Below are positions 15,679 to 39,635 of a stretch of 40,226 nucleotides of DNA, piece after piece. Origin of the DNA: Anaerolineales bacterium (GTDB taxonomy: Bacteria; Chloroflexota; Anaerolineae; Anaerolineales; UBA4823); NCBI GenBank assembly GCA_035291705.1, contig DATDRM010000037.1:1-40226 (forward strand). The letters are read 5' to 3'. The position numbers were made by a program, and so were the translations under genes. The notes beneath the pieces were generated by a model. That model did not search any database. It was not told where the DNA came from and was given only the letters and a program-made list of their open reading frames with translations. Each line of letters begins with the position of its first letter. Within the stretch, counting starts at the first letter, position 1.

Positions 15679-15803
15679 GAACGAAATAGATAAGCATTAT
15701 CCCAAGCTAACCTCAATACCTGGACAACGCAAACCAGTCGTTAAAACCGACACTGTGACCAGGAAACTATGAGACTATTCGACTAAAGAAGGAGTATAAG
15801 CCC

Positions 15804-16778: not shown

Positions 16779-16779
16779 A

Positions 16780-16839
16780 GACGAACGACGAACGACCAAG
16801 GACCAAAGTAGAACAATCCTTCTTCCTTCGTCTTTCGTC
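16780..16839 (+). repeat. Inverted heptamer arrays forming a ~23-bp imperfect hairpin in the acsD-acsC spacer
   Basis: The 5' arm GACGAAC GACGAAC GACCAAG GA (16780-16802) pairs 19/23 with TCCTTCTTCCTTCGTCTTTCGTC (16817-16839). Loop is 14 nt and both arms have 7-nt periodicity. Confidence 0.65.
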
Positions 16840-16860
16840 ATTTGTCGATTGGAGAGAACC

Positions 16861-18201: not shown

Positions 18202-18204
18202 GAG

Positions 18205-18239
18205 TTGCGATTTGCAAATTGCGGGATGCGAATTGCGAA
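18205..18239 (+). repeat. Five tandem heptamers TTGCGAT TTGCAAA TTGCGGG ATGCGAA TTGCGAA in the acsC-RACo spacer
   Basis: Exact 7-nt register read directly from the sequence. The last unit supplies the A of the ATG at 18239. Contains the palindrome ATTTGCAAAT. Confidence 0.6.
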
Positions 18240-20179: not shown

Positions 20180-20191
20180 GAGAGGGCCCCT

Positions 20192-21115
20192 ATGTATATC
20201 CTTGGAGAGAATATCCACATCATCTCAGATAAAGTCAAGGAGGCGCTCGCCGCGAAGGACGCCCGTTTCTTCCAGGAACTGGCGGTTAAACAGGTCGAGG
20301 CTGGAGCTTCCGCTTTAGATCTGAACCTGGGACCACGCAAGAAAGACGGGGAAGAAGTCTTTCCGTGGATCGTCGAGACGGTCGAAGCGGTGGTCGACAT
20401 CCCACTCAGCTTCGACTCCACCAACTTGCTCGGCATTGAAGCCGGTCTGAAGAAAATCAGCAAGGCTCAGCCGATCATTAACTCCACCTCGGCTGAACCC
20501 GAACGCCTGGAGAAAGTGCCTCTGGTGGCTAAAAAATACGACACGCGCCTGATCGCCCTGACGATGGGGGCCAGCGGGATCCCGGTCGCGGCTGATGAAC
20601 GCGTGAATATCGCCCTGGAGAAATTGATCCCGCGCATGATGGAGATCGATTTTCCAATGCAAAACCTGATTATCGATCCCCTGGTGCTGACCGTCTCAGG
20701 TTGCCAGGAGTATTGCCCGCAGCTGATCGAGGCCGTGCGCACCCTGCAATATGCCTGGGATCCACCTCCCACCATCTCCATCGGTCTTTCCAACGTATCC
20801 AACGCCGTGCCACGCGATAACCGGCCGTTGATCAACCGGGTTTACTGCGCCATGGTGATGGGCGTCGGTCTGAATATGATGATCGCAGACCCCCTCGATA
20901 AAGAATTGGAAGAGACAATCCATATCATTGAAGCACGTGACGACTCCACCCCTGTCGGCCGTCTTTATCTGAAGATCGCCGACCGCATCGCCGCGATGGA
21001 AGAGCCAACGATCGATGATGTTGACTTGAATGACCCGGAACAACTCGCAATCTGGAAAACAATCCAGATCCTGCTTAACAAGGTGATCTATGCTGACTCG
21101 TATCTGCAACAATGA
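20192..21115 (+). CDS. acsE: Methyltetrahydrofolate:corrinoid/iron-sulfur protein methyltransferase
   Basis: Pterin-binding (DHPS-like) barrel of 307 aa with LGENIH...LDLNLGP...INS...GLSNVS. In the acs cluster. Confidence 0.9.
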   Translation: MYILGENIHIISDKVKEALAAKDARFFQELAVKQVEAGASALDLNLGPRKKDGEEVFPWIVETVEAVVDIPLSFDSTNLLGIEAGLKKISKAQPIINSTSAEPERLEKVPLVAKKYDTRLIALTMGASGIPVAADERVNIALEKLIPRMMEIDFPMQNLIIDPLVLTVSGCQEYCPQLIEAVRTLQYAWDPPPTISIGLSNVSNAVPRDNRPLINRVYCAMVMGVGLNMMIADPLDKELEETIHIIEARDDSTPVGRLYLKIADRIAAMEEPTIDDVDLNDPEQLAIWKTIQILLNKVIYADSYLQQ

Positions 21116-23613: not shown

Positions 23614-23709
23614 CATTATAGATAAGATAAGTGATTATTACCCTATTCGTCATAAAGACATCGGGGTAGTCTCGCAACTCAGTTCGCCTGAGGGGAGGCA
23701 CGATTGCAA

Positions 23710-26700
23710 ATGGTAAAAACCCGGATAATCCGTGGTGAGCCCGCCGCGACCCTGGTGGTAGGCGGTGGTATTGGGGGTATGCGCGCCGCGTTGGATCTGG
23801 CTGATGCTGGGCTGAAGGTATACCTGGTTGAACAGACGCCCTGCCTGGGAGGCCGGGTCGCCCAACTCGGTTATATGTTCCCGCAACACGATTGCGTGCT
23901 CTGCCGGGGCACCGCCGACCATGGCTATGGCTGCACGCGTCCTTCCATTTCCCCGGCCTATATCCAACATAACCAGCACCCAAACATCGAAATCCTGACC
24001 AATACCCGCATCCTGGAAGTGGAGGGCGAGGCCGGCGACTTCACCGTATCCTTGCGCCAGGAACCACGTTACGTCGATCCAGTGCATTGCACAAGTTGCG
24101 GCCTGTGCGCACAGGTCTGCCCGGTCGAACTCCCCAACAGCTATCAATTGGGGATGACCATGCGCAAAGCCGCCTACAAAGTGGCGGCGCGGGCCACACC
24201 AGACGCTTACTGCATCGACAAAGGGCCATATTGCGAAACCTGCGGCGAATGCGTCAAGGCCTGCCCAACCGGGGCGATAGACCTGCACGAGCAGCCTCGC
24301 CTCTTAACCGTCGAGGTTGGGGCGATTATCCTGGCGCTCGGTTTCAAGGTTTACGACTCCAGCGAGATGGAAGAATTGGGGCATGGTCGTTATCCCAATG
24401 TCCTGGCGGCCATGCAGTACGAACGTCTGGCGAGCCGCTCCGGCCCGACCGAAGGCCTCATCACCCGCCCCTCCGATGGGCAAACTCCTCGTTCCATCGC
24501 CTGGCTGCAGTGTGTCGGTTCACGCGACCAAAACAATGCCTTCTGTTCGTCGATCTGCTGCATGTATGCCACCAAGGAAGCCATCCTCGCAAAACAGCGC
24601 CTGGGGAACGAAATTGGTTGCAGCGTCTTTATCATGGACGAACGCGCTTTCAACAAAGAGTATAGCGCCTACTTTTCCACCGCCCGCCAGCAGCATGGAA
24701 TCCAATATAACCATTGCCGGGTGTCCTCGATCCAGGAAGACCCATCTACACACGATTTGATCTTGTATTCGGCGGACCCCAACGGGAAACTCCGCCAGGA
24801 ACGGTTCGAGATGGTGGTACTGGCAACCGGCCTGCAGCCACCCGAGTCTGCCAGAGACCTGGCTAAAAACCTGGGCATTGAACTAAACCAATACGGGTTC
24901 TGCGAGACCGATAAATTTACACCTCTGCAAACTACACGACCTGGCGTCTTCGTATGCGGCGCCTTCTCCTCACCCAAAGAGATCGTTGAAACGATCATCG
25001 ATGCCAGCGGTGCGGCCGCCGAAGTCATGCGACTGCTCAACGATCGACTGCACACCTACACATACTCCCGCGCCTGGCCTTTCCTCTCAACCGATGATTT
25101 CCGTCCTGAAAAGGATGTCAGCCGGGAACCCGTGCGGGTTGGCGTCTTCGCTTGCAGTTGCGGGGATACTCTCAACGAGGTGATCGACATCCCCGCATTG
25201 TTGCACCAGGCCAGCCAGGTGCCGGGAGTGGTGCACGCCGAGATTCTGGACTACGCCTGCTTCCCAGAGAACCAGGAATACTTAAGGCAACGGATTCAAG
25301 AGGCGGACCTCAACCGGGTAGTGGTTGCCGCCTGCAGCAACCGCACCCATGAACCCCTTTTCCAACGCACCATCCGCATAGCAGGCCTTAATCCCTACTT
25401 GCTCGAAGTGGTCAACCTGCGCGAGCAATGCGCCTTCGTCCACCAAACTCAACCCCAGCTGGCGAACCGTAAAGCCATTGAGTTAGTGCGCGTCGCCGTT
25501 GGGCGCGTCTCGTCTGCACAACCAGTGAATAAGGATAAGCACCGCTGCCTGCCTTCTGCGCTGGTGATCGGAGGCGGTGTGGCAGGAATGTCTACTGCCC
25601 TGGCTATCGCCGACAGCGGCTACGATGTGCACCTGGTTGAACGGTCCGAGATGTTGGGGGGCAACCTGCGTAACCTGTACTACGTCGCCGAAGGATATAA
25701 CCCTCAGCGCTTGCTGCGCGACCTGGTCAACCGGGTGCGCGCCCACCAACGCATCAAGGTTTATATCCGCACGGAAATGATCAACCACAGCGGGCATGTA
25801 GGCCATTTTCGCAGTGAACTACGCGCCCAGCATAACGATCACATGGAAGTCATCACCGTCGAACACGGTGTGACAATCGTGGCGACGGGGGCGCAAGAAG
25901 CCAAGGGTTATCCTCTGCTGGAATTTCCCCTGGTCATTACCCAACAAGAGCTGGAAGAGAAAATCATTCACCACCCCGAGGAGATCGCCGCGCTCAAGCA
26001 TGTCGTCATGATCCAATGCGTGCGCACGAAGGGCGCGCCGGATTATTGCTCACGGGTGTGCTGCACAAATACGATCAAGAACGCAGTGCGTTTGAAGCTC
26101 TTCAACCCGACCTGTCAGGTCAGCGTACTCTATAAGAACATCGTTACCTACGGTTTCCGTGAGGAATACTACGAGGAAGCCAGAAAGCTGGGTGTGGTCT
26201 TCATCCGTTATACAGACGAACGGCCGCCAGAGGTGCTTTTAGAGGACAACCGGTTGGTCGTCAGGGCGTACGACCTGTCCCTGGATCGCTGGTTGCGACT
26301 GCCAGCCGACCTGATCCCGATGAGTATGTCAATCCTTCCTGCTGAGGGCACTCAAGAGCTTTCACGTATGCTGCGCGTGCCGATATCCAGCGAAGGGTTC
26401 TTCGAGGAGGCGCAAATGAAGCTGCGCCCGATGGACTTTATGCGCGACGGCATCTTCCTGGCCGGCATGGCCCACTATCCTAAATTTATCGAAGAGAGCA
26501 TCAGCCATGCTCTGGCGGCAGCCGGGCGCGCCTTGACTTTGCTCTCACAAGAGACGCTTTATTTGGGTGGTGTAATCGCGCAGGTGGATCCAAACAAGTG
26601 CGTCGGCTGCCTGACCTGCACGCGCACCTGCCCCTTCCAAATCCCGCAAATCATCTACCTGGAAGGGCGCACTGGCGTCGGTGAATTGGGCGGAGCGGCC

Positions 26701-26856
26701 TACATCGATCCAGCTCTTTGCCAGGGGTGCGGCACCTGTACTGGTGAATGCCCAGCCAATGCCATCCAGTTGGTCAACTATACCGATGAGCAGATGATGC
26801 TGCACGCGATTGGAGGATTAGGTAGCTGGAAAGTGCCGGTGGCCAGTATTCAGTAA
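23710..26856 (+). CDS. Double HdrA-like flavo-iron-sulfur oxidoreductase (two fused HdrA-type units, no NAD(P)H module)
   Basis: Two FAD motifs (VVGGGIGGMRAALDLADAGLKVYLVE and VIGGGVAGMSTALAIADSGYDVHLVE). HdrA signatures FPQHDCVLC, LQCVGSRDQNNAFCSSICCMYATKEA and MIQCVRTKGAPDYCSRVCC. Several CxxCxxCxxxCP ferredoxin motifs. TTG 23704 is an alternative start and GGGGAGG lies upstream. Confidence 0.8.
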   Translation: MVKTRIIRGEPAATLVVGGGIGGMRAALDLADAGLKVYLVEQTPCLGGRVAQLGYMFPQHDCVLCRGTADHGYGCTRPSISPAYIQHNQHPNIEILTNTRILEVEGEAGDFTVSLRQEPRYVDPVHCTSCGLCAQVCPVELPNSYQLGMTMRKAAYKVAARATPDAYCIDKGPYCETCGECVKACPTGAIDLHEQPRLLTVEVGAIILALGFKVYDSSEMEELGHGRYPNVLAAMQYERLASRSGPTEGLITRPSDGQTPRSIAWLQCVGSRDQNNAFCSSICCMYATKEAILAKQRLGNEIGCSVFIMDERAFNKEYSAYFSTARQQHGIQYNHCRVSSIQEDPSTHDLILYSADPNGKLRQERFEMVVLATGLQPPESARDLAKNLGIELNQYGFCETDKFTPLQTTRPGVFVCGAFSSPKEIVETIIDASGAAAEVMRLLNDRLHTYTYSRAWPFLSTDDFRPEKDVSREPVRVGVFACSCGDTLNEVIDIPALLHQASQVPGVVHAEILDYACFPENQEYLRQRIQEADLNRVVVAACSNRTHEPLFQRTIRIAGLNPYLLEVVNLREQCAFVHQTQPQLANRKAIELVRVAVGRVSSAQPVNKDKHRCLPSALVIGGGVAGMSTALAIADSGYDVHLVERSEMLGGNLRNLYYVAEGYNPQRLLRDLVNRVRAHQRIKVYIRTEMINHSGHVGHFRSELRAQHNDHMEVITVEHGVTIVATGAQEAKGYPLLEFPLVITQQELEEKIIHHPEEIAALKHVVMIQCVRTKGAPDYCSRVCCTNTIKNAVRLKLFNPTCQVSVLYKNIVTYGFREEYYEEARKLGVVFIRYTDERPPEVLLEDNRLVVRAYDLSLDRWLRLPADLIPMSMSILPAEGTQELSRMLRVPISSEGFFEEAQMKLRPMDFMRDGIFLAGMAHYPKFIEESISHALAAAGRALTLLSQETLYLGGVIAQVDPNKCVGCLTCTRTCPFQIPQIIYLEGRTGVGELGGAAYIDPALCQGCGTCTGECPANAIQLVNYTDEQMMLHAIGGLGSWKVPVASIQ

Positions 26857-26927: not shown

Positions 26928-27467
26928 ATGATGACAATCAAACCAGCCATTCAAACCTTCGAGCCCGAGATCACCGCCTTTTTCTGTATTTACTGCGGTT
27001 ATATGGCCGCGGATACGGCCGGGGCACTGCATATCCAATATCCGGCTAACGTCAAATTTATCCGCATGCCCTGCACGGGAAAAACCGATATTCGTTACTT
27101 ATTAGAAGCTTTTGAGCAAGGCGCTGACGGCGTCTACGTAGTAGCCTGCCCGATCGGCAACTGCCATCACGTGCGCGGCAATGAACGCGGATGGGCCAGG
27201 TTGAAACGCGCCCAGAAAATCTTGGACGAAGTCGGGATCGGCGGCGAGCGCCTGGACATGTTTTTTATGTCCGGCAGCCAGGCCCACACCTTTGTCTCAG
27301 CTGTCCAAAACATGACGGCACGCATCCGCAAGCTGGGTCCGAACCCGCTGAAAGCCAAGGATGAAGGCAGAAGGGTGAAGGCTGAGAAAGTAATAATTGA
27401 ACCCGAAGAAGAAGTTGGATTTAGGGGTAGACCCCCCCGATCAGTCAAATCCAAGAAGGAAAGGTAA
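26928..27467 (+). CDS. mvhD: MvhD-like protein (methyl-viologen-reducing hydrogenase delta subunit family), Cys-type
   Basis: ITAFFCIYCGY...MPCTGK...GADGVYVVACPIGNCHH family pattern. The stop overlaps the next start (TAATG). ATG 26931 is an alternative. Carries a charged C-terminal extension. Confidence 0.8.
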   Translation: MMTIKPAIQTFEPEITAFFCIYCGYMAADTAGALHIQYPANVKFIRMPCTGKTDIRYLLEAFEQGADGVYVVACPIGNCHHVRGNERGWARLKRAQKILDEVGIGGERLDMFFMSGSQAHTFVSAVQNMTARIRKLGPNPLKAKDEGRRVKAEKVIIEPEEEVGFRGRPPRSVKSKKER

Positions 27468-30400
27468 TGGTTCGGAAAGCGGGCGATACCAGTGCAGTGC
27501 TCCCCGTCGGCGCGGTGATGGTCGTCGGGGGTGGGATCGCGGGTATGCAAGCCTCCTTAGACCTGGCCGATCAAGGCTTCAAGGTCTACCTGGTTGAAAA
27601 TAAGTCCGCCATCGGAGGGAAGATGGCGCAGCTCGACAAGACCTTCCCGACCAACGACTGCGCCATGTGCACCATCTCGCCCAAGCTGGTCGAGACTGGT
27701 CGCCATCCGAATATCGAGATCCTGACCAATACCAATGTGCTGGACGTCAGCGGGCAGGCCGGGGACTTCACCGTCACGGTGGAGCGCCAGCCCCGCTATG
27801 TCGACCTGAGCAAGTGCATCGCCTGCGGGGATTGCATCAAGGTCTGCCCGGTCATCGTCCCCGACACCTTTAACGAAGGACTGGCTCCTCGCCGGGCGGT
27901 CTATAAACTCTACCCGCAAGCCGTCCCCAACGCGTTTGCCATCGAAAAGCGCGGCATCGCCCCCTGCCGGGACGCCTGCCCATCCGGGCAGCGCGCCCAA
28001 GGCTACATCGCTCTGATCCGGGAGGGACGCTGGGAGGATGCTTTGCGGGTGATCAAAATGGACAATCCCTTTCCGGGCATCTGTGGGCGGATCTGCAACC
28101 ATCGCTGTGAAACGGCCTGCAACCGCGGCCAGGTCGACGAACCGATCAATATCCGCGCCCTGAAGCGCTTCGTCACCGATAAAGTCTACGCCTCGCCACG
28201 CCAACCGCTCGATCCAGTCGAGATTAAATACCCTGACCGGAGAGTCGCCATCATCGGCGCAGGACCATGCGGCCTGACGGCCGCCCAGGATGTCATTCGT
28301 GCCGGATACCCGGTGACGATCTTTGAAGCCATGCCCGTCGCAGGCGGCATGCTGCGCCTGGGCGTTCCCGAATACCGCCTGCCCGCCGAGGTCATCGAAC
28401 GCGAGGTGCAAGATGTCGTCGACCTGGGTGTTGACCTGCGCCTGAACACGCAAGTCAACAACTTGGACGACCTTTTCGAGGAAGGGTTTGCCTCTGTTCT
28501 GATCGCCGTCGGCGCTCACGAGGGTATCCGCCTGCCGATCCCAGGCGCCAACCTGGAGGGCGTGCTGATCAATACACATTTCCTGCGGGACGTCCGGCTG
28601 GGAAGGTACTCGAAGAAGGATGAAGGGGTGCCGGAGCTGGGGCAAAATGTATTAGTGCTCGGCGGCGGGAACGTGGCGATCGATGTCGCCCGCAGTGCAG
28701 TCCGCCTGGGTCGCCAGGTCTCAATGGCCTGCCTGGAAAGCGGCGAGCAGATGCCTGCCCACCCCTGGGAGATCCAGGCAGCCGAAGAGGAGGGCGTCGC
28801 CCTTTACCCAGGGCGCTCCTTCGAACGCGTCCTCCCAGACGAAAACGGCCGGGCCTGCGGCGTCGAGTGCATGCAGGTCAGCTCTTTCAGTTTCGACGAA
28901 GCTGGCCGCCTATCCGTCGAAAAGGCCCCTAATTCGAAGCATGTCATCGCCTGCGACACGGTGATCTTCTCGGTCGGTCAGCGCGCCGGCCTGGCTTTCA
29001 TTCCGGACGATGCTGGCGTTGGCCTGACCGAGCGCAAGACCATCGCCATCAATCCAAATACCTTTGCTGCAACTCGTCCAGGTGTGTTCGCAGCCGGGGA
29101 TAGCGTCTCCGGCACGGCCTTCGTGATCGAGGCGGTGAACAGCGGGCACAAAGCTGCCGAATCCATCCTGCGCTTCCTGCGCAGTGAAAACCTGGAGACG
29201 CCTCCCAAGCCGAAGTTGCCTGTGGTGCGCCTCACACGCCAGGAGCTCGAGGAACGGATGGGGCGTGGCGAGATCCACCGCAAGGGACGCATACCCCTGC
29301 CAGAGCTGCCCGTAGCGCAGCGGGTTGACAATTTCGCCGAAGTCGAAGGCGGATACGACGATGAGAGCGCCCAGGCCGAAGCCGCCCGCTGCCTGGCCTG
29401 TGGGATCTGCTCGGAGTGCATGTCCTGCGTCTTTGCCTGCGGGCGGAACGCCATTGACCATGATGACCTCCAACGCATCGAATCGCTGCAGGTCGGCGCG
29501 CTGATCCTCGCCCCAGGTTATCAGATTTACAACGCGCACCTGTCCGAAGAATATGGGCTGGGTCGCTACTCCAACGTGGTCACCGCTTTACAATACGAGC
29601 GGATGCTCTCCGCCAGCGGCCCCACCAAAGGACATGTCGAACGCCCCTCCGACGGGCACAAACCCAAGCGGATCGCCTTTTTACAGTGCGTTGGCAGCCG
29701 CGACCAAAGCCACGATTACTGCTCGTCGGTGTGCTGCATGTACGCAGCCAAGGAAGCCATCATGACCGTCGAGCACGCCAGGGCGGAGGCGCGCTCCGGA
29801 AATGGCGATGGCCAGGTGTCCTGCCAGGTCTTCTTCATGGACACGCGCGCCTTCAGCAAGGGGTACGAAGAATATTACCGCCGGGCGGAAGGCAAATACG
29901 GAGTCAAGTATACACGCTGCCGGCTGAGCGACCTTAAAGAAGACCCCCTCACCCACAACATCAGAGTCCGCTATGCTGCTCCATACCAGGGTATTCACGA
30001 GACCATCGAGGAAGAGTTTGACCTGCTGGTGTTATCCGTGGGGATGGAGATATCCGAGCCGGTTAAGGAACTCGGCCGGAACCTGGGGATCGAGCTCGAC
30101 CCTTACGGCTTTTGCCACACCACCCTATTTAATCCCTTGCAAACCAGCCGGGCTGGCATTTTTGTCGCCGGGCCCTTCCGTGAGCCAAAGGACATCCCCG
30201 AAACCGTGATGGAGGCCAGCGGGGCGGCGGCGAATGCGGCGCGCTTGCTCGCCCCGGCCCGCAACACCCTGGCCCAGGTACGCAGTTATCCGGACGAACG
30301 CGATATCATGGCAGAGGCCCCACGCGTCGGGGTGTTCGTCTGCCACTGCGGGAGCAATATCGGCGGTTTTCTCGACGTGCCCGGGGTGGCCGAGTACGCC

Positions 30401-32095
30401 CGCACCCTGCCCGGCGTGGCGCACGCCGAGGACAATCTCTACACCTGTTCCCAGGATACGATCGCCCATATTATCGATCAAGTTAAACAGCTGGAGTTGA
30501 ACCGGGTGGTGGTCGCTTCGTGCACGCCGCTCACCCACGAACCGCTCTTCCAGGATGCCATCCGCCAGGCCGGGCTTAACCCGCATCTCTTCGAGATGGC
30601 CAATATCCGCAACCAATGTTCGTGGGTGCACTCCTCTGATTGGGAAGGAGCGACCGCCAAGGCCAGGTCGATGGTACGCATGGCGGTGGCGCGCGCCAGT
30701 GAGCTGCAGCCACTGAAGACCTCCGAAGTGCCGGTCAACCATGCCGCCCTGATCATTGGCGGCGGGATAGCCGGGATGACTGCTGCACTCACGTTGGCCG
30801 ATCAGGGCTTTCCAGTCCATCTCATCGAGCGGGAAGAACAACTGGGCGGCAATCTGCGTCACCTGCACTACTTCCTGCCTGCAACTGCGTCTCTGCCGCT
30901 TCCTTTTCCCTCCCCTCAAGAATATCTCGCCGAAACGGTCGCCCAGGTCACCCGGCACCCAATGATCCAGGTTTACACGCAAGCTGAATTGATCGAGACC
31001 GGCGGATTTAAAGGCAACTTCACCTCCACGATCCGCCGGGATGAGGGCACATTCCAGGTGGGACATGGCGTGATCCTGATCGCCACGGGCGGCGTCGAAT
31101 ACAAGGGACGTGAATACGGCTACGGCACGCATCCCGGGATCCTTACGCAACTGCAATTCGAGGATTTCCTCGCCAACCAACCAGCTGAGATCAGCGACCT
31201 CCAATCTCTGGTCATGATCCAATGTGTTGGCCCAGGCGAGAAGTATTGCAGCCGCCTGTGCTGCACCACCGCCCTAAAGAACGCCCTCAAACTCAAGGAA
31301 CTCAACCCGCAAGCCCAGATCACGCTGCTCTACCGTGATATCCGCACCTATGGATTCAAGGAGCGCCTGTACACTGAGGCGCGGCGAGCGGGGGTCAGGT
31401 TCATCCACTTTGATTTTGATCGCAAGCCGGTAGTAAGAGTCAGTGAACAGCAAGATGCAAGCCGCAATCTGGGATCGATTACTGTCGAGGTGTGGGAGCC
31501 GCTGCTTGACAGGGAGATCACGCTGGAACCGGATCTGCTCGTGTTGAGCACACCTGTCGTCCCACCAAGCGGGGCGCGCGAGCTGGCTAGCCGGCTCAAG
31601 CTGCCGGTAGACATGGACGGTTTCTTCCTGGAGGCGCACGTCAAGTTGCGTCCGGTAGACTTCTCTGCAGACGGTGTCTTTATGGCCGGCCTGGCGCATT
31701 ATCCCAAGTTCCTCGACGAAACGATCGCCCAGGCCCAGGCAGCAGCCTCGCGGGCTGCCAATATTCTTTCACAGGAATTCATGCTGACAAACGCCCGCGT
31801 GGCGGTGGTAGACCCGCTAAAATGCGTCGGTTGTTTGACCTGTGTCCGGATTTGCCCTTACGATGTGCCGCGCGTGCGCGCTGACTTTGCCGGTGTTGGC
31901 AGTATCAGCGGCGCAGCGTATGTCGAGCCAGCCATCTGCCATGGATGTGGTACATGCGCCGCGGAGTGCCCAGCGCAAGCCATTCAGCTGATGCACTACA
32001 CCGACGCACAGACCCTGATGAAGCTGGATGCGCTTTTCAGACGCCAACCGGAAAAGGCAGGTTTTGTGCCCGTGACAAGCATAGAGGTACGCTGA
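27467..32095 (+). CDS. Giant HdrA-like / GltD(NfnB)-like / HdrA-like fusion oxidoreductase (HdrL-like), 1542 aa
   Basis: HdrA N-terminus (VVGGGIAGMQASLDLADQGFKVYLVE, FPTNDCAMC). Inserted GltD-type module (CRDACPSGQ...ICGRICNHRCETAC, VAIIGAGPCGLTAA, VLVLGGGNVAIDVA, FAAGDSVSG). HdrA core (FLQCVGSRDQSHDYCSSVCCMYAAKEA, FVCHCGSNI). Second HdrA-like unit (IIGGGIAGMTAALTLADQGFPVHLIE, MIQCVGPGEKYCSRLCC). C-terminal 2x[4Fe-4S] motifs. Confidence 0.85.
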   Translation: MVRKAGDTSAVLPVGAVMVVGGGIAGMQASLDLADQGFKVYLVENKSAIGGKMAQLDKTFPTNDCAMCTISPKLVETGRHPNIEILTNTNVLDVSGQAGDFTVTVERQPRYVDLSKCIACGDCIKVCPVIVPDTFNEGLAPRRAVYKLYPQAVPNAFAIEKRGIAPCRDACPSGQRAQGYIALIREGRWEDALRVIKMDNPFPGICGRICNHRCETACNRGQVDEPINIRALKRFVTDKVYASPRQPLDPVEIKYPDRRVAIIGAGPCGLTAAQDVIRAGYPVTIFEAMPVAGGMLRLGVPEYRLPAEVIEREVQDVVDLGVDLRLNTQVNNLDDLFEEGFASVLIAVGAHEGIRLPIPGANLEGVLINTHFLRDVRLGRYSKKDEGVPELGQNVLVLGGGNVAIDVARSAVRLGRQVSMACLESGEQMPAHPWEIQAAEEEGVALYPGRSFERVLPDENGRACGVECMQVSSFSFDEAGRLSVEKAPNSKHVIACDTVIFSVGQRAGLAFIPDDAGVGLTERKTIAINPNTFAATRPGVFAAGDSVSGTAFVIEAVNSGHKAAESILRFLRSENLETPPKPKLPVVRLTRQELEERMGRGEIHRKGRIPLPELPVAQRVDNFAEVEGGYDDESAQAEAARCLACGICSECMSCVFACGRNAIDHDDLQRIESLQVGALILAPGYQIYNAHLSEEYGLGRYSNVVTALQYERMLSASGPTKGHVERPSDGHKPKRIAFLQCVGSRDQSHDYCSSVCCMYAAKEAIMTVEHARAEARSGNGDGQVSCQVFFMDTRAFSKGYEEYYRRAEGKYGVKYTRCRLSDLKEDPLTHNIRVRYAAPYQGIHETIEEEFDLLVLSVGMEISEPVKELGRNLGIELDPYGFCHTTLFNPLQTSRAGIFVAGPFREPKDIPETVMEASGAAANAARLLAPARNTLAQVRSYPDERDIMAEAPRVGVFVCHCGSNIGGFLDVPGVAEYARTLPGVAHAEDNLYTCSQDTIAHIIDQVKQLELNRVVVASCTPLTHEPLFQDAIRQAGLNPHLFEMANIRNQCSWVHSSDWEGATAKARSMVRMAVARASELQPLKTSEVPVNHAALIIGGGIAGMTAALTLADQGFPVHLIEREEQLGGNLRHLHYFLPATASLPLPFPSPQEYLAETVAQVTRHPMIQVYTQAELIETGGFKGNFTSTIRRDEGTFQVGHGVILIATGGVEYKGREYGYGTHPGILTQLQFEDFLANQPAEISDLQSLVMIQCVGPGEKYCSRLCCTTALKNALKLKELNPQAQITLLYRDIRTYGFKERLYTEARRAGVRFIHFDFDRKPVVRVSEQQDASRNLGSITVEVWEPLLDREITLEPDLLVLSTPVVPPSGARELASRLKLPVDMDGFFLEAHVKLRPVDFSADGVFMAGLAHYPKFLDETIAQAQAAASRAANILSQEFMLTNARVAVVDPLKCVGCLTCVRICPYDVPRVRADFAGVGSISGAAYVEPAICHGCGTCAAECPAQAIQLMHYTDAQTLMKLDALFRRQPEKAGFVPVTSIEVR

Positions 32096-32580
32096 TGGCC
32101 GATCAAGACTTCCAACCCGAGATTATCGCCTTCTGCTGTCACTATTGCGCCTATGCCGCCGCCGACCTGGCTGGTTCCATGCGGCTGGAATACCCAACCT
32201 CGATCAAGGTGATCGAACTACCCTGCTCCGGCAAACTCGACGTGCTGTATGTCCTGCGCGCCTTCGAGGACGGTGCTGACGGGGTAATGGTGGCTGGCTG
32301 ACTGGAGGGCGACTGTCATTACCTGGAAGGTAATCTCAACGCCCGGCGGCGAGTTGAATACGCCCAGAAGTTGCTGAAGGAGATCGGCCTGGAAAGCCAG
32401 CGGATCCAGATGATCAATATCTCCTCAGCGATGGGCGGCCAGTTCGCCTGGTCAGCCGCCGAAATGACGGCCGAGATCAAGCGTATCGGAGCCAACCCGC
32501 TGAGGCAGAATGGAACTGAGGATCATTTGACCCAGGAAACCCCACCAGCTGAGGCCAGCCTGGGAAACGAAGGATTGTAG
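32095..32580 (+). CDS. mvhD: MvhD-like selenoprotein, in-frame UGA (32299-32301) read as selenocysteine
   Basis: Track ORFs 31945..32301 and 32371..32580 are in the same frame. The read-through gives ...GADGVMVAG-U-LEGDCHYLEGN..., collinear with the Cys paralog ...GADGVYVVA-C-PIGNCHHVRGN... through the shared C-terminal G(P/A/S)NPL motif. Hairpin downstream. The start overlaps the upstream stop (TGATG). Confidence 0.8.
32307..32344 (+). promoter_or_regulatory. SECIS-like stem-loop 5 nt downstream of the UGA
   Basis: GGGCG-ACTGTC-ATTACC-TGGAA-GGTAAT-CTCAA-CGCCC, with outer stem 32307-11/32340-44 and inner stem 32318-23/32329-34. The same architecture occurs in the second UGA-containing paralog and is absent from the Cys paralog. 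Confidence 0.55.
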
Positions 32581-32591
32581 GAGGCTACGAC

Positions 32592-32996
32592 ATGGCAGAG
32601 ATGGAGAAAAGATCCTATATCCTGATCGTCGACGATGACCCGGACATCCTGGAGGGCATCGTCACTATCCTGGAGTCACAACCCTATCGCCTGGCCACGG
32701 CGCGGGATGGGAAAAAATGCATGGAGATGATCACACAGGAAATCCCGGATCTCTTGATCCTGGACCTGCTCATGCCGCGCATGGACGGTTGGGGCGTGAT
32801 TCGCGAGATGCGCAGCGAACCACGCTACACCCACGTTCCGATCATGGTGCTGACCACGGTCATTGAGGATGCCAGCCGGCGGCGCTATGAACTCGAGACC
32901 GGGATGGCGATGGACATCCAGGACTTCGTCCAAAAACCGGCTAACCCGGCAGATTTACTACAACGGGTAGAGAAACTGCTAAAAATCCATGTTTGA
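32592..32996 (+). CDS. Stand-alone response regulator receiver (CheY-like, no output domain)
   Basis: ILIVDDDPDI, phospho-acceptor context LLILDLLMPRMDG, conserved T (VLTT) and K (QKP). 134 aa, GGAGG RBS. Confidence 0.85.
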   Translation: MAEMEKRSYILIVDDDPDILEGIVTILESQPYRLATARDGKKCMEMITQEIPDLLILDLLMPRMDGWGVIREMRSEPRYTHVPIMVLTTVIEDASRRRYELETGMAMDIQDFVQKPANPADLLQRVEKLLKIHV

Positions 32997-34206
32997 AGTG
33001 TCTGCGCGCTCTCTCACGGTAACTGCAGAGCGGTTGCGCCGCTCAGAAATCTTCAGCGAACTATGCGATGAGGATTTAATCGCCATCGCCGAATTTTGTC
33101 GTGAGCAAACTTTCCACGAAGGTGAATTTGTGCTGGTGGAGGGCGCGCCCGCCGAGACCATGTTCATCGTAGAGCGCGGCAAACTGGCCCTGGAAAAGAA
33201 AATCCAGATCGGGCGGCACTCGACGCCGCGCAACGCGACCATCGGATACGTTGAACCAGGTAAGATCGCCGGCTTCTCTACCCTGACGATGCCCGATGAA
33301 TATTCCACCTCTGCCGTGTGCCTCGAACCCACCCGCGTCATTGCAGTCGATGGGAAAGCCTTGCGCGCCTTCCTGGAAACCCACCCGGCAGCCGGTCTCA
33401 AGGTGATGAGGATTCTAGCAATGCTGGTCGGCGGTCGCTATCGCAACGCAACCAACACCCTTACTTACTTCCTTTCCATTGTCTCGCACGAACTGCGTGG
33501 GCCTCTGGCAGCCATTGAGAACTATTTACAAACGATGCTCGGAGGCTTCGCCGGGGAGCTCAACCCAAAACAAAAACGCATGATAGAACGCAGCATCCTG
33601 CGCGTGGTCGACCTGCGCACCCTGATCGGCGACGTGGTCGACCTGGCGCGCATGCGCCCGGAACAGATCCAGGCCGATTTCGAATGGTGCAACCCAGGCG
33701 AAATAGGTACCGAATCGGTCGAGGATGCGCGCCTGGCAGCAGCCGAGAAAGGCATTCGCTTGATCATCGAACCGCCGCCCAAGTTCGAACCTATCGTTGG
33801 AGCGCGGCGACGATTACGGCAGGTTTTCACCAACCTGCTAAACAACGCCATAAAATTCTCACCCCCGGACAGCCGAGTGTTTTTTCGCGCCTGGTATGAA
33901 CAAGAAGCGGTCGTCTTAGAAGTCGAGGACGAAGGCCCGGGCATCCCCGAAGAAGACCTGCCCCATATCTTCAAAGATTTCTTCCGCGCCAGCAACGTCG
34001 AACAGACTCAAGGCGCGGGACTCGGCCTTTCGATCGCCATGAAAATCATTGAAGCTCACAATGGAAGAATCCTGGTCAGGAACTTGACTGGCGAGGCCGG
34101 CAAAACCGGCACCCGCTTTACTGTCTACATCCCCCGCGATCTGCTGACGCCTGAGATGCGTCGCAGGGAGTGGATAGCGACGGAAAGCGACCAGCTCAAA
34201 GGGTAG
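32989..34206 (+). CDS. Soluble sensor histidine kinase with an N-terminal CAP_ED (cNMP-binding-like) domain
   Basis: Crp-type beta-barrel pattern (IFSEL...F.EGEFVLVEGAPAETMFIVERGKLAL). H-box SIVSHELRGPL, N-box NLLNNAIKFSP, G1 EDEGPGIP, G2 GAGLGLSI. No TM segments. The start overlaps the receiver stop (ATGTTTGA). Confidence 0.85.
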   Translation: MFEVSARSLTVTAERLRRSEIFSELCDEDLIAIAEFCREQTFHEGEFVLVEGAPAETMFIVERGKLALEKKIQIGRHSTPRNATIGYVEPGKIAGFSTLTMPDEYSTSAVCLEPTRVIAVDGKALRAFLETHPAAGLKVMRILAMLVGGRYRNATNTLTYFLSIVSHELRGPLAAIENYLQTMLGGFAGELNPKQKRMIERSILRVVDLRTLIGDVVDLARMRPEQIQADFEWCNPGEIGTESVEDARLAAAEKGIRLIIEPPPKFEPIVGARRRLRQVFTNLLNNAIKFSPPDSRVFFRAWYEQEAVVLEVEDEGPGIPEEDLPHIFKDFFRASNVEQTQGAGLGLSIAMKIIEAHNGRILVRNLTGEAGKTGTRFTVYIPRDLLTPEMRRREWIATESDQLKG

Positions 34207-34226
34207 CTTCAGGTGAACTGAGAACG

Positions 34227-37200
34227 ATGAATAAGAGTGATTCGGCCATGATTAAATTAAACACAGCCGCACAAGTCGGCCCGGTCGGCGCCGTCCTGGT
34301 GGTCGGCGGCGGCATCGCTGGGATGCAAGCGGCGTTAGACCTGGCCGATCAGGGCTTCAAGGTATATCTCGTCGAGGAGAAATCGGCCATTGGCGGGCAC
34401 ATGGCCCAGCTCGACAAGACCTTCCCCACCAATGACTGCGCCATGTGCAACATCAGCCCCAAGCTGGTGGACACCGGGCGGCACACCAATATCGACATCC
34501 TCACCAATAGCGACGTGTTGAGCGTCGAGGGGCAAGCTGGCAATTTCACCGTGACCCTGCGTCGCAGGCCGCGCTACATCGATGTCGACAAGTGCGTGGG
34601 GTGTGGAGATTGTGCCGAGGTTTGCCCGGTTTCTATCCAGGACCTCTATGAAGAAGGATTGAAGGAGCGGAAAGCCGCTTATCGCCTCTACACCCAGGCA
34701 GTCCCCGCAGCTTACGCCATCGAGAAGCTCGGGATCGCTCCCTGCCGGGGGAGCTGCCCGGCCGGGCAACGCGCCCAGGGGTATATCGCCCTGATCGCCG
34801 AAGGCAGGTATCGCGAGGCACTGCGCGTCATCAAGGAGGATAACCCCTTCCCGAGCGTCTGTGGGCGAACCTGTCACCATCCATGCGAGGGCAGCTGCTC
34901 ACGTGCCCTGGTCGACCAGGCAGTGGGTATCATGTCGCTGAAGCGCTTCGTCGTCGACTACGCCCTGGCGTATGGACGGGAAAAGGTGGAACCAGTTCCC
35001 CGCACCCGTGCGGAATGGATTGCCGTGGTCGGTGCCGGGCCAGCCGGGTTGACCGCGGCGCATGACCTGGTGAAGCTCGGCTACGGGGTGACCGTCTACG
35101 AGGCGCTGCCGGTGGCCGGCGGCATGATGCGCGTCGGCATCCCGGCTCACCGCCTGCCTAAAGGCGTCCTTCAACAAGATATCGACGACATCCTTGCCCT
35201 GGGAGTGATGCTCAAGACAAACACCCCGGTTAAAGACCCGACGGCGCTGCTCAAGCAGGGATATGACGCAGTCTGCCTGGCGACCGGCATATCCTCCCCT
35301 GACCATTCCCTCGGCATCGACGGCGAGGAAGCGGACGGCGTTCTTTCAGCGGCCACCTTCTTACGTAAAATCAACCTCGGCGAGAAAATCACCATCGGAG
35401 AGCGTGTAGCCGTGGTGGGTGGTGGGATCACCGCCTTGGACACCGCGGCGGTTGCCAGGAGGTTGGGAGCGCAGGCGGTCTATCTGGTTCTCGACCGCCC
35501 ACGCGGTGAGCTGCCCGCTTACCATTGGGAGATGGCAGCAATTGAAGCGGAAGGCATCCATTTACACGAGCGCACCACTGCCATCCGCGTCCTGTCAGCC
35601 GGTGGTAAAGTAGTTGGCATTGAGCTCGCCCAAGCCAGCCAGGGTATAGAAGTGGATGCCAGCGGGCGGCGGCGTCCAAAGGTCAAAACTGGCTCGGAAT
35701 TCATCCTGGATGTCGACACGATCATCGGAACGGTGAGCCAGTTTTCAGATTTGAACTACCTGGATTCCCGCTTCGACGATCTGGCCGGCGATCCCCAGAC
35801 CCTGGCTAGCAAGGTCCCCGGTCTGTTCGTGGTCGGCGGCCGCAAGACCGGCGCCAGTTATATTATTGAAGCAGTGGCTCTCGGGCACCGGGTGGCCCGC
35901 TCTATCCACCAATTCCTGCAAAAACAACCGCTGGACCAGCCTGATCCACCGGCGCCACCCGTCGTGAAGTTCACCCGCCAGGAACTGGCCGAAAAAGTGG
36001 CAGCGGGTGAGATTCAACCGCAGGCGAGGATTGAACCCGCGCTGCTGCCAATGGAAGAGCGGGTGACCAGTTACCGCGAAGTTGTCCTCGGGCTGACTGA
36101 ACACCAGGCGCGGGCGGAAGCCCAACGCTGTCTGCAATGTGGCATCTGCTCAGAATGCCTGGCGTGCGTTTATGCTTGCGGAGTGAATGCCATCGACCAC
36201 AACATGGTGACGCGCCAGGAGCAGCTCAACGTGGGCGCAGTCATCCTGGCCCCTGGCTACCAGGTTTACCACGCCGAACTTTCAGAGGAATTTGGGTTTG
36301 GACGCTTCCCGAACGTAGTCACTGCCCTGCAGTTCGAACGCCTGTTATCAGCTTCCGGCCCGACGATGGGCCATATCAGCCGGCCTTCTGACCACAAAGC
36401 CCCCAGCCAGATCGCTTTCCTGCAGTGCGTGGGTTCCCGTGACCAGAGCCATGACTACTGCTCGGCGGTGTGTTGCATGTACGCCACCAAAGAAGCGGTG
36501 ATCGCCAAAGAACACCTGCCCGGCCTGGATGTGCATGTCTTTATGATGGATATGCGCGCTTTCTCCAAGGGATATTGGAGCTACTTCGAGCGAGCCCGCG
36601 ACCGCTATGGCGTCCACTACCACCGCAGCCGGATCAGCAGCTTATGGGAAGATGCTGAATCCCATGACCTGCTCCTGAATTATCTGGACGAGGGCGGGGT
36701 ACTGCACTCCGAACGCTTCGATATGGTTGTTCTTTCAGTGGGCATGGAGATCTCGGAATCCGTGCGCCAGATGGGACTTCGCCTGGGAATAGAGCTGGAT
36801 GAATATGGCTTCTGTCACACAACCCAATTCAACCCGTTAGAGACCAGCCGCCCCGGCATTTTCGCAGTTGGCCCATTTCGCGAGCCAAAGGATATCCCCG
36901 AATCTGTCGTCGAGGCTAGCGGAGCAGCCGCCACCAGCGCAGCCTTACTCGCTGGTGCACGTGGGTCGCTGACCCACATGCGTGAATACCCCGTTGAACG
37001 GGACGTTTCCGCAGAGCCACCGCGCATCGGGGTTTTCGTCTGTCATTGCGGTTCGAACATCGCCGGCTTTCTCGATGTGCCTGGCGTGGCCGGGTACGCG
37101 CGCCGGCTTCCCGATGTCGTTCACGCAGAAAATACGCTCTACGCCTGCTCTCAAGATTCGATTAAGTTAATTTCTCAGCGCATACAAGAGCTCAGCCTGA

Positions 37201-38762
37201 ACCGGGTCGTCGTGGCCAGTTGCTCGCCGCTCACTCACCAACCCCTATTCCAGGACAGCCTCCGGGCAGCAGGTTTGAACCCCTACCTGGTGGAAATGGC
37301 CAATATCCGCAACCAGTGCTCTTGGGTACACTCTGATGATTGGGAAGTAGCCACAGACAAGGCAAAAGAGCTGGTGCGTATGGCGGTAGCGCGGGCGGCC
37401 TTGCTCGCGCCGCAAACGACCATGACCGTCCCGGTGCAACGGGCCGCGTTGGTGGTCGGCGGTGGCGCAGCCGGAATGACCGCTGCCCTGGCGCTGGCCG
37501 AGCAGGGGTTCCCGGTACACCTGGTGGAAAAAGAGGCCGAATTGGGCGGTAACCTGCGGCAAATATTTACTTCGCTGCCACCTTCCGGAGTGGAGCAGCC
37601 CCAAGACCCGCAAGCCACCTTGCAACGCCTGGAAAGGTTAGTCCTTTCCCACCCAACTATTTCCTTGCACTTGAAGAGTAAAGTAGTTGCCACTTCCGGC
37701 TTCATGGGGAACTTCACCACCACGATCCTCCACGCCGATGGAGAGCGGGTTGCAGTAACCCATGGAGCGACGATCCTGGCAACCGGTGGCCAGGAATACC
37801 GCGGTCCTGAGTATGCCTACGGCACGCATCCGAAGGTCATCACGCAACAGAAGTTCGAGGCATTCCTTGCCAATCAGCCATCAGGGATCAAAAACATTAA
37901 ATCTATCGCCATGATCCTGTGCGTTGGGCCTGCGGAAAAATACTGTAGCCGCATCTGTTGCTCGGTCAGTCTCAAGAACGCCTTGCGGCTGAAGGAGATA
38001 AATCCGCAGGCGGAAGTCATGCTCCTTTATAAGGACATTCGCACCTACGGCTTTAAAGAAAGACTATATGCAGAGGCCCGCAAACACAACATCCTTTTCG
38101 CCCGCTACGACGACGCCCACCCTCCGCAAGTAGCGGCAGGGCAAGATGATATCTTGCCCTACGACGGTCTGACTGTTCGTGCTTGGGATGCCTCCCTGGA
38201 CAATTGGTTCACTTTGCAGCCGGATATCCTGGTGTTAAGCATGCCTATCGTCCCACGGCCTGAAACCGCTGATGTATCCAGGCTGTTCAAAGTCCCTACG
38301 GACAGGGATGGCTTCTTCCTCGAAGCCCACGTCAAGCTCCGCCCGGTGGATTTCTCCTCGGATGGGGTCTTCATGGCCGGCATGGCGCATTACCCAAAGC
38401 TGTTGGACGAAACCCTGATCCAGGCCCAGGCAGCCGCGGCGCGAGCGGGGCGTGTACTCAGCCGGGAGGCATTGACCGCCGGTGGACGGGTAGCTGTGGT
38501 GGATCCAAAATTGTGCACCGGCTGCCTGACTTGCGTGCGCATTTGCCCTTATGGCGTGCCAAAGATCCAGGCAGACCTGACTGGGGTAGGCGGCATCGTG
38601 GGTGCAGCCTTTATCGAAGCCGCCGTGTGCCTTGGCTGCGGCTCGTGTGTAGCCGAATGCCCGGCGCGCGCCATCCAGCTGATGCATTACACCGACGCGC
38701 AAATGAAGGCCAAGGTGGCGGCGTTATTCGTATCGTTGCCGGTTAATACGACCGAGGGTTGA
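34227..38762 (+). CDS. Second giant HdrA-like / GltD(NfnB)-like / HdrA-like fusion oxidoreductase (paralog of 27467..32095)
   Basis: Collinear with the upstream giant protein, with the same motifs in the same order ([35 protein letters not shown]...[81 protein letters not shown]; C-terminal ferredoxin motifs). The tracked start 34170 overlaps the kinase. ATG 34227 or 34248 is more likely. Confidence 0.85.
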   Translation: [1511 protein letters not shown]

Positions 38763-38791: not shown

Positions 38792-39205
38792 ATGAATGCG
38801 CCAAAGTTGCAGATCATCAGCTATTGCTGTGAACACTGCGCCTACGCAGCTGCGGACCTGGCTGGGGGGCTCCGCCTGCAGTACCCGCCAGTCATCAAGA
38901 TCGTCCTGCTGCCCTGCACTGGCAAGCTAGATTCATTGATGGTGCTCCAGGCCCTGGAAGACGGCGCGGACGGTGTGATGGTGGCAGGCTGACTGCCTGG
39001 CGACTGTCATTACCAGTTAGGTAATGCCAACGCCAGACGCCGGATAAAGCGACTTAAAACATTGCTGGCCGAAATTGGCCTTGAGCCAGGGCGGGTGCGC
39101 ATGTTCAACCTGTCGTCGGCCATGGCGGGCGAGTTTGTTGCGGCGGCAAAAGACATGACGGAAACTATCGAAGATCTGGGGTCAAACCCCTTAAGGAAAG
39201 TATGA
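38792..39205 (+). CDS. mvhD: MvhD-like selenoprotein, in-frame UGA (38990-38992) read as selenocysteine
   Basis: Track ORF 38759..38992 stops at TGA. Continuing in frame gives ...GADGVMVAG-U-LPGDCHYQLGNANARRRIKRLKTLLAEIGLEPGRVRMFNLSSAMAGEF...GSNPLRKV, collinear with both other MvhD copies. The 3' half is missed by the track, which reports only an antisense shadow ORF 39010..39258. Confidence 0.8.
38997..39036 (+). promoter_or_regulatory. SECIS-like stem-loop 4 nt downstream of the UGA
   Basis: CTGGCG-ACTGT-CATTACC-AGTTA-GGTAATG-CCAA-CGCCAG, with a 6-bp outer stem, a 7-bp inner stem and a 5-nt apical loop. Confidence 0.6.
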
Positions 39206-39231
39206 AGGCTGAAGGCTGAAGGATGAAGGAT
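39204..39231 (+). repeat. Four tandem heptamers GAAGGCT GAAGGCT GAAGGAT GAAGGAT (left arm)
   Basis: Exact 7-nt register overlapping the mvhD stop codon. Reverse complement of the array at 39608-39635. Confidence 0.75.
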
Positions 39232-39246
39232 GATAGCTGAAATTAA

Positions 39247-39603
39247 ATGAATGAGCAAGATTTGAAAGTGAGGACCAAGAGCTTCGCGTTGATGGTGATC
39301 AAGCTTTACAGTATGTTACCCAAAACAACAGTGGCACAAGTTCTTGGCAAGCAAGTCTTGCGATCCGGCACATCGGTTGGAGCTCAATATCGAGAAGCAC
39401 AACGGGCGAAGTCTGATGCCGATTTCATAAACAAGATCGAAGGGAGCTTACAAGAACTAGAAGAAACAGCTTACTGGTTAGAACTTATTGAAGAAGCCGG
39501 TATCATATCAGAAGACAAGTTGGCGTTACTACTAAAGGAAACTAATGAACTTACGGCTATATTCGTCTCAATCGTTAGAAAAGTTAAGACTAAAAGAAGG
39601 TAA
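39247..39603 (+). CDS. Four-helix-bundle protein (23S rRNA intervening-sequence protein / Avd-like family)
   Basis: 118 aa with the family-typical pattern K.F.L.V..L...LPK......LG.Q..RSGTSVGA.Y.EA.RA.S..DF..K......EL.ET.YWLEL. Visibly more AT-rich than all flanking genes. Confidence 0.85.
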   Translation: MNEQDLKVRTKSFALMVIKLYSMLPKTTVAQVLGKQVLRSGTSVGAQYREAQRAKSDADFINKIEGSLQELEETAYWLELIEEAGIISEDKLALLLKETNELTAIFVSIVRKVKTKRR

Positions 39604-39607
39604 CCGC

Positions 39608-39635
39608 ATCCTTTATCCTTCATCCCTCATCCTTC
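39608..39635 (+). repeat. Four tandem heptamers ATCCTTT ATCCTTC ATCCCTC ATCCTTC (right arm, inverse of 39204-39231)
   Basis: ATCCTTC is the reverse complement of GAAGGAT. About 24 of 28 positions can pair with the left arm, counting G-U. Confidence 0.75.

Follow-up and report, generated by a model that had tools for sequence, protein, structure and literature searches.

A very probable selenocysteine form of MvhD with an intragenic SECIS element beside HdrA-like flavoproteins in an Anaerolineales genome

The window analysed here, a 40,226-nucleotide stretch of DNA from an Anaerolineales bacterium (Chloroflexota; GenBank assembly GCA_035291705.1, contig DATDRM010000037.1), carries at positions 38792..39205 of the forward strand a gene for a small [2Fe-2S] protein of the MvhD/FlpD family, whose reading frame holds an in-frame UGA codon that very probably specifies selenocysteine (Sec). 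This gene, mvhD copy 2, forms a complete coding sequence (CDS) of 137 residues, with the presumptive Sec (U) as residue 67. Two paralogs lie upstream on the same strand: a further Sec-type gene, mvhD copy 1 (32095..32580), which is 60% identical to copy 2 and has its UGA at 32299-32301, and a Cys-type gene (26928..27467), which has TGC (27147-27149) in the UGA column, lacks the hairpin described below, and is represented by a 179-residue product in an independent metagenome assembly of the region (L081).

Translation of 38792-39205 (+) meets a sole internal stop, the TGA at 38990..38992 (+), in the context VMVAG-*-LPGDCHY; the gene's own stop is the TGA at 39203-39205, and 70 in-frame codons separate the two. 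With Cys placed at the UGA, the protein matches PF02662 (FlpD; family cut-off 22.3 bits) without a break, residues 8-130 aligning with profile positions 1-123 of 123 (E = 2e-45, 154 bits). The NCBIfam VhuD model NF045873 gives 144.5 bits, below the strict 215-bit cut-off set for the exact archaeal protein, and full-length matches to solved MvhD/VhuD chains range from E = 1e-36 to 2e-29 (7bkb_F, E = 1e-36; 9sfi_K, E = 3e-32; 5odc_D, E = 6e-31). All six Cys/Sec columns of the family (CCxxC, PC, C/U, xxxxC) are retained in copy 2. The UGA aligns with the conserved Cys of Cys-type homologs, and residue 67 falls opposite an ‘X’ (Sec), one of two Sec residues in the archaeal VhuD chain 9sfi_K. Orthologs found by tblastn span residues 1-136.

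Conventional gene finding breaks this gene apart. In the list of open reading frames (ORFs), the forward ORF stops at 38992, a 47-residue in-frame remnant occupies 39062-39205, and an antisense ORF of 82 residues covers 39010-39258; the first in-frame start past the UGA lies 24 codons on, and a product begun there would lose the conserved CHY..GN motif. An earlier account of this DNA made from its letters alone (hereafter the sequence-only reading) had proposed a UGA-recoded MvhD paralog with the TGA at the Cys-equivalent position, about 70 further collinear codons, and a 3' half represented in the ORF track by an antisense frame only. Translation, PF02662 and the alignments agree with this proposal, the codon count is exactly 70, and the ORF track is as described save for the additional in-frame remnant; the arrangement also matches that of copy 1, as had been claimed, where TGA 32299-32301 is likewise followed by an ATTACC/GGTAAT hairpin. 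Global reassignment of UGA was considered and rejected, since UGA is the ordinary terminator of 9 of the 25 genes in the window, copy 2 among them. Assembly error was rejected as the source of the TGA because L081, which differs by 3 mismatches in 1435 nt, retains both the TGA and the hairpin. Gene callers shorten the two Sec-type mvhD genes of L081 to 68 and 66 residues. Three protein entries of the family (P0020, P0036, P0041) show Trp at the UGA position, and for one of them the DNA (L212, 314-724) shows TGA there; the Trp possibly stems from an alternative genetic code picked by the gene caller.

Just downstream of the UGA of copy 2, RNAfold predicts an extended hairpin at 38997..39036 (+). 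Its core minihelix (39009..39025, +) comprises ATTACC (39009-39014), the loop AGTTA (39015-39019) and GGTAAT (39020-39025), with C39008-G39026 as a seventh stem pair; its outer stem, CTGGCG (38997-39002) paired with CGCCAG (39031-39036), shows no conservation among orthologs. The minihelix of copy 1 (32318-32334, +) reads ATTACC-TGGAA-GGTAAT, which is the family consensus, and is extended by the outer stem GGGCG/CGCCC. Predicted folding energies are -20.3 kcal/mol for copy 2 (56 nt; z = -2.85) and -20.5 kcal/mol for copy 1 (z = -1.88); single-sequence z-scores of this size are moderate, and the case beyond chance therefore rests on comparative data. No further copy of the hairpin motif was found elsewhere in the window. 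The hairpin sequences that the sequence-only reading gave for both copies, and its coordinates for the hairpin of copy 2, proved correct, and the RNAfold check that it had suggested recovered both structures. Its description of the Cys-type paralog as stemless holds as well: the codons there are CAT CAC GTG CGC GGC AAT, among which no such pairing is possible.

For comparison, orthologs were collected from one genome per species, and the best 80 homologous loci, nearly all from metagenome-assembled genomes of Anaerolineales or other Chloroflexota, were kept as the genome set. The Sec/Cys column holds TGA in 64 of these 80 loci and TGC or TGT in the other 16. A gap-free alignment of 122 codons around the site provided 61 Sec-type genes for the calculation of codon entropy and 60 distinct sequences for the analysis of pairing. 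On either side of the UGA, all but one block of the conserved degenerate codons show 0.5-2.4 bits of codon entropy; such conservation of residues, with synonymous change left free, shows that the half downstream of the UGA is translated and selected at the protein level. The codons of that block, +6 to +11 (CAT TAC CTG GAA GGT AAT), behave differently, with zero entropy for His, Tyr, Leu, Gly and Asn in all 61 genes; for Glu, 50 genes have GAA and four have GAG. Cys-type genes write the same residues as CAT/CAC, TAY/TTY, GGC/GGG and AAT/AAC.

At the level of RNA, the arms AUUACC/GGUAAU are identical in 66/66 TGA-type genes when genome set and window are taken together, and the six inner pairs form in 60/60 distinct sequences; RNAalifold retains the 6-bp inner stem and the 5-nt loop, and nothing more. 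Within the genome set, all six pairs are present in 64/64 TGA genes versus 2/16 Cys genes (Fisher p = 8e-14). Mean energies of the local hairpin are -6.4 kcal/mol for Sec-type and -3.5 kcal/mol for Cys-type genes; for the whole 60 nt they are -19.1 kcal/mol (Cys-type) versus -17.9 kcal/mol (Sec-type). The complete lack of synonymous variation from +6 to +11 in 61 TGA genes sustains, for the inner stem, the earlier claim that selection acts on the hairpin as RNA structure and that conservation of the protein does not account for it.

The same alignment provides two smaller observations. Around the Sec codon itself (38987-38995 in copy 2), the preceding Gly is GGT in 42/61 genes, the base 3' of the UGA is C in 54/61, and CTG accounts for 51 of the 56 Leu codons that come next, which may constitute a weak-termination context. 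In one Sec-type gene (L070, ~3181-3240), Tyr (TAT) replaces the conserved Cys five residues past the Sec (LEGD-Y-HYLEGN), with both TGA and hairpin kept; this Tyr may be a sequencing error or the mark of a decaying gene.

The outer stem has a different standing. Pairs 8-47 and 9-46 each fail to form in 41 of the 60 distinct orthologous sequences. Copy 2 has U-A and copy 1 has G-C as pair 9-46, and the association between these two columns arises from two paralog clades: in genes with the motif LPGD the partner codon is mostly AAA/AGA with either Pro codon (CCC or CCT), and in genes with LEGD it is mostly CGN with either Glu codon (GAG or GAA). The other outer pairs (10-45, 11-44, 12-43, 13-42) are about equally frequent in Cys-type and Sec-type genes, and thus follow from the codons for Gly-Asp...Asn-Ala. 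Outer-stem covariation was accordingly rejected, given the unpaired majority, the clade effect, the lack of a Sec/Cys difference and the removal of the outer pairs by RNAalifold. The sequence-only reading had inferred from outer-stem compensation between the two copies that structure was kept as sequence changed, and had called for a test of covariation across orthologs. The inference does not survive in that form: the outer stem is a copy-specific extension and no conserved part of the element, the inner stem is conserved in its very sequence across this clade, and the covariation term of RNAalifold is 0.

A wider sample was obtained with a degenerate DNA pattern (G-[AV]-D-G-x4-G-TGA-x2-G-x-C-H), which has at least 122 matches in at least 120 metagenome contigs; the matches listed and the genome set together give 175 distinct Sec-type 60-mers and bring the number of genes with TGA at the exact column to ~190. 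The arms AUUACC/GGUAAU are present in 158 of the 175 distinct 60-mers, and they recur in a subfamily with the motif U-H-x-G-[DE]-C-H-Y that shares 33-38% protein identity with copy 2. At least six contigs (L098, L105, L126, L135, L194, L204; motif Q-C-H-F-L-E-G-N) carry AUUUCC-UGGAA-GGAAAU instead, a compensatory change from A-U to U-A at pair 23-33 by which Tyr UAC becomes Phe UUC and Gly GGU becomes GGA. A second hairpin type, of 8 bp (GCCACUAU-GGU/GUU-AGUGGC), stands at the same distance from the UGA and likewise has G then G/U in its loop; it occurs in a group of at least eight contigs (L088, L144, L154, L163, L156, L147, L181, L112), of which L112 folds differently (7/8 with the 8-bp stem), and the encoded proteins have the motif U-H-P/L-G-[DE]-C-H-Y-[GVI]-S-G-N. 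Structure retained with changed sequence, the pattern formerly proposed for the two copies in the window, is thus found in other MvhD lineages and not between those copies. In three Sec-type sequences (L178, L192, L202), neither hairpin type was found. Across 164 hairpins of the common type examined, the loop follows N-G-[G/U]-N-N, with G at position 2 in all 164 and G (148) or U (16) at position 3.

These features can be set against the model of the bacterial selenocysteine insertion sequence (bSECIS), which calls for a loop of 3-9 nt, an upper stem of 4-16 bp, a distance of 16-37 nt from UGA to loop, a minimum free energy (MFE) of at most -7.5 kcal/mol, and a loop whose first two positions contain at least one G, as a rule with G/U after it (PMC13188914). 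Copy 2 lies within these limits, with a loop of 5 nt, a stem of 6 bp (7 with the C-G pair) and a UGA-to-loop spacing of 22 nt (38992 to 39015); its loop, A-G-U-U-A, satisfies the G rule, and its 25-nt core passes the energy limit at -7.8 kcal/mol. The 25-nt core of copy 1 alone reaches -5.5 kcal/mol, and -20.5 kcal/mol with its flanks. In E. coli fdhF, the apical minihelix and its distance from the UGA matter and the lower stem is dispensable, which agrees with the non-conserved outer stem seen here. Like the elements covered by the bSECIS consensus model of Zhang and Gladyshev, with the E. coli fdhF and fdnG hairpins as prototypes, the mvhD minihelix is a stem-loop inside the CDS, directly 3' of the UGA; in contrast to those prototypes, to which it is unrelated in sequence, its arms are unusually invariant, the same 12 arm nucleotides persisting down to 33% protein identity.

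Taken together, we consider it very likely, at a probability of roughly 0.9, that 38792-39205 encodes a selenocysteine MvhD with a bSECIS. We infer that Sec is inserted, that SelB binds the element and that the genome has selA, selB, selC and selD, and the steps that follow are modelled on the established bacterial Sec pathway. When the ribosome reaches the UGA at 38990-38992, mRNA beginning 16 nt downstream would be folded into the 17-nt minihelix AUUACC-AGUUA-GGUAAU, whose apex, with G at loop position 2 followed by G/U, would be bound by the complex SelB.GTP.Sec-tRNASec. SelB would thereby bring Sec to the A site in competition with release factor 2 (RF2), and translation would then continue for 70 codons to the true UGA stop, which has no hairpin. 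The resulting MvhD would act as the small [2Fe-2S] subunit that hands electrons to the flavin of HdrA-type bifurcating enzymes.

Cys-type genes bear directly on this interpretation. A search of the protein database returned mostly full-length, hence Cys-type, homologs. In the DNA of seven Cys-type hits the hairpin is intact in four (L206, L207, L208, L211), G.U-paired in two (L205, through a U.G pair, and L210, where UUC...GGG gives U.G) and weakened in one (L209); in the genome set, the Cys-type gene L025 also has it intact. The sequence-only reading had named Cys orthologs with the same stem as evidence that would count against it, and in the literal sense such genes exist (L025, L206, L207, L208, L211); we read them as fossils of a Sec-type past and not as a refutation. 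The 30 Cys-type proteins with the motif HYLE are polyphyletic, each being nearest to a different Sec-type lineage (mean identity 81%); 12 of them have a Sec-type gene as their overall nearest neighbour, and L208 (Cys) is 98% identical to L011 (Sec). Cys-types with altered motifs (HFLE, HYQQ, HFQQ and others) show 70-73% identity to any Sec-type and form Cys-only clusters. The replacement of Tyr by Phe, always compensated in the 6 of 175 Sec-type sequences that have it (matches listed plus genome set), is found in about half of the Cys-type genes, so that the constraint appears relaxed there. L205 and L206 also have different Cys codons (TGC and TGT), in keeping with separate conversions. The polyphyly of the hairpin-bearing Cys-types and their closeness to Sec-type lineages argue that they are recent Sec-to-Cys converts with a fossil SECIS; to judge from these sequences, conversion looks recurrent and followed by decay. 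There is precedent for such a history, remnant SECIS elements in Cys converts having been reported in 2006 together with three Sec-to-Cys and three Cys-to-Sec events in FrhD/MvhD (PMC1794560).

The most serious competing explanation is that the minihelix serves a role independent of Sec, such as pausing of the ribosome while the cluster is inserted, an effect on mRNA stability or binding of another factor, and that its association with UGA is coincidental. Seven Cys-types that keep all six pairs (L025, L206, L207, L208 and L211, with L205 and L210 through U.G) are what such a role would produce, and L205, L206 and L207 differ from their nearest sampled Sec-type genes at 55-72% of 4-fold sites; because several of these nearest genes are near saturation, Sec-independent selection of the hairpin is conceivable, and the hairpin of some Cys-types may possibly be retained for a remaining function there. 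The evidence that the pair L205/L206 gives for selection in Cys-type genes is weak (p ~ 0.1 by a rough estimate). The explanation is nevertheless improbable in view of the sharp division between TGA and Cys genes in the genome set, the clustering of polyphyletic HYLE Cys-types near Sec lineages with the altered-motif Cys-types farther off, the relaxed Tyr-to-Phe constraint, the agreement of position and loop with the bSECIS model, and the remnant elements already described (PMC1794560). Several results weigh against a Sec-decoding element nonetheless. Besides the near-saturation just mentioned, selA, selB, selC and selD are all absent from the 40-kb window, whose only tRNA is a tRNA-Gln; the inner stem, being invariant in the Anaerolineae set, yields no covariation there (term 0); the loop AGUUA of copy 2 occurs once among the 164 hairpins, fitting the loop pattern; and Rfam, at its gathering threshold and at E up to 10, returned no SECIS match, a null that says little because no Rfam model reached threshold for the element.

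Two further explanations fare worse still. That the hairpin merely follows from the conserved protein sequence (C-H-Y-x-x-G-N, G-D...N-A) would account for outer pairs that are equally frequent in Cys-types and for 60-nt folds that are equally stable in both classes, and for the outer stem this explanation stands; for the inner stem it is refuted, as 61/61 Sec-types use only CAT, TAC, GGT and AAT in the arms, and the loop Leu is always CTG and its Glu nearly always GAA, whereas other synonymous sites vary, which leaves it with hardly any credibility for the element as a whole. It is just as implausible that the UGA truly terminates a pseudogene or one part of a split gene, or that reassignment or near-cognate read-through makes it a codon for Trp, Gly or Cys. 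The gene-caller products of 66-68 residues, the Trp in P0020, P0036 and P0041, and the lack of visible Sec machinery in the window could be quoted in its favour, but the TGA column is kept in ~190 genes, purifying selection acts on the frame downstream of it, UGA ends 9 of 25 genes in the window, and reinitiation at the next start, 24 codons on, would drop CHY..GN. Homologs, moreover, have Cys at this position, the solved VhuD has Sec, and a UGA-specific hairpin stands at SECIS distance. Selenocysteine insertion directed by the minihelix is thus the reading we prefer.

A broader proposal, which we advance tentatively and hold to be rather less likely than its negation, is that AUUACC-NG[G/U]NN-GGUAAU constitutes a family-wide SECIS, invariant in sequence and common to MvhD subfamilies that are ~33% identical. 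If so, bacterial MvhD would be ancestrally a Sec protein, with most Cys forms as repeated one-way derivatives in which the SECIS decays in a clock-like manner; alternatively, Sec-type mvhD would have spread horizontally together with its SECIS. Independently of this proposal, the data clearly exemplify how an intra-CDS SECIS fixes both codons and residues (His-Tyr-Leu-Glu-Gly-Asn) and how this constraint relaxes after Sec-to-Cys conversion.

FrhD/MvhD/VhuD, whose Sec-containing forms are delta subunits of F420-non-reducing hydrogenase/heterodisulfide reductase complexes, was recognized as a selenoprotein family around 2004-2006, and one genome often has several copies. By 2006 FrhD/MvhD ranked third in number among bacterial selenoprotein families, with up to 8 copies in one genome; it is present in Moorella thermoacetica, and the Moorella selenoproteome was listed with one HdrA and one FrhD/MvhD (PMC1794560). 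The family is also listed in current reviews, among them PMC13188914. Its known members, from Methanococcales and from Deltaproteobacteria and Clostridia (Syntrophobacter, Syntrophus, Moorella), share with the genes described here the full-length domain, the Sec site, an hdrA-type neighbour, several paralogs per genome, the coexistence of Sec and Cys forms, and recurrent Sec-to-Cys switches. The present case differs in its host, a member of the Anaerolineae (Chloroflexota), and in its partner, a giant HdrA-GltD-like fusion linked to metV-metF and a Wood-Ljungdahl cluster, in place of a [NiFe] hydrogenase; archaeal VhuD, in addition, has two Sec residues, and MvhD copy 2 has one. The [2Fe-2S] cluster of MvhD/VhuD feeds the bifurcating flavin adenine dinucleotide (FAD) of HdrA (PMC6019823; PMC13518236), and the VhuD papers describe this cluster and a Sec in HdrA, with no role given for the aligned Sec of VhuD. 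Within the Anaerolineales, SelB and Sec-type formate dehydrogenases have been reported from single-cell genomes, and SelB also from A. thermophila (PMC4959059). A 2026 review confines these Sec-containing subunits of hydrogenases to sulfate reducers and methanogens (PMC13188914), a statement that the Anaerolineae data do not fit.

Since both the selenoprotein family and this kind of SECIS are long known, what is new is modest, and the current understanding of Sec decoding is unchanged by these data. The novelty consists in Sec-MvhD being the majority form in Anaerolineales, in this sample, and in SECIS arms that are unusually invariant across distant MvhD subfamilies. The former extends a family mostly treated as one of methanogens, sulfate reducers and syntrophs and implies a selenium need for the pathway that MvhD serves. 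Because Sec-type mvhD genes are cut short or translated with Trp, the electron-input subunit of the HdrA-MvhD-MetVF module looks broken in Anaerolineae, and such mis-annotation affects reconstructions of Wood-Ljungdahl carbon fixation for subsurface Chloroflexota.

Three tandem units lie in the window, each with a giant HdrA-like flavoprotein gene followed by mvhD, and two of the three have a Sec-type MvhD. The first HdrA-like ORF (23704-26856; 1050 residues) precedes the Cys-type paralog; the second (27467..32095, +; 1542 residues) lies directly upstream of copy 1; and the third (34170..38762, +; 1530 residues), upstream of copy 2, combines, by Pfam and NCBIfam matches, HdrA with a GltD/NfnB-like module and ferredoxin domains, has no in-frame UGA, and is probably the redox partner of copy 2. 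Each of the two larger ORFs has a GltD/NfnB-like NAD(P)H module as an insert and gives a weak match to the NCBIfam model ‘diclust_near_Sec’. The HdrA of these units is Cys-type, and a tblastn search with the three HdrA-like proteins against the 80 loci found no TGA aligned with Cys. Neither hdrB nor hdrC was found beside the hdrA-like genes of the window. Between units 2 and 3 (32592-34206) lie genes for a response regulator and a histidine kinase with a cyclic nucleotide monophosphate (cNMP)-binding domain, and a complete carbon monoxide dehydrogenase/acetyl-CoA synthase (CODH/ACS; Wood-Ljungdahl) cluster occupies 11282-21115; cell-division and aminoacyl-tRNA synthetase genes are also present. 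L081 continues for longer, and in it copy 2 is followed by metV (PF12225) and metF (PF02219). The order hdrA-like, mvhD, metV, metF is common to L081 and L205-L211, the unit adjoining the Wood-Ljungdahl (CODH/ACS) cluster, and hdrA-mvhD-metVF clusters have been described in marine Anaerolineae (PMC5736913).

Some minor features of the window deserve mention. Between copy 2 and metV, at 39247-39603, lies a 118-residue ORF that matches the ‘23S rRNA-intervening sequence protein’ family (PF05635, E = 6e-20). It is flanked by an array of TGAAGGC (x5.6; 39198-39241), which begins at the mvhD stop, and by an inverted array of CATCCTT (x4.1; 39607-39635); the two form 29-nt inverted arms that are 86% complementary, and the ORF resembles an insertion enclosed by inverted repeats. 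Near 27370-27390, the Cys-type paralog has a similar stretch rich in TGAAGG in its 3' tail. Elsewhere, just downstream of the tRNA-Gln and between the glutaminyl-tRNA synthetase (GlnRS) gene and the CODH/ACS cluster, a 429-residue ORF without a Pfam match adjoins a gene for a two-domain multicopper oxidase, the pair lying at 8159-9448 (-) and 9471-10622 (-).

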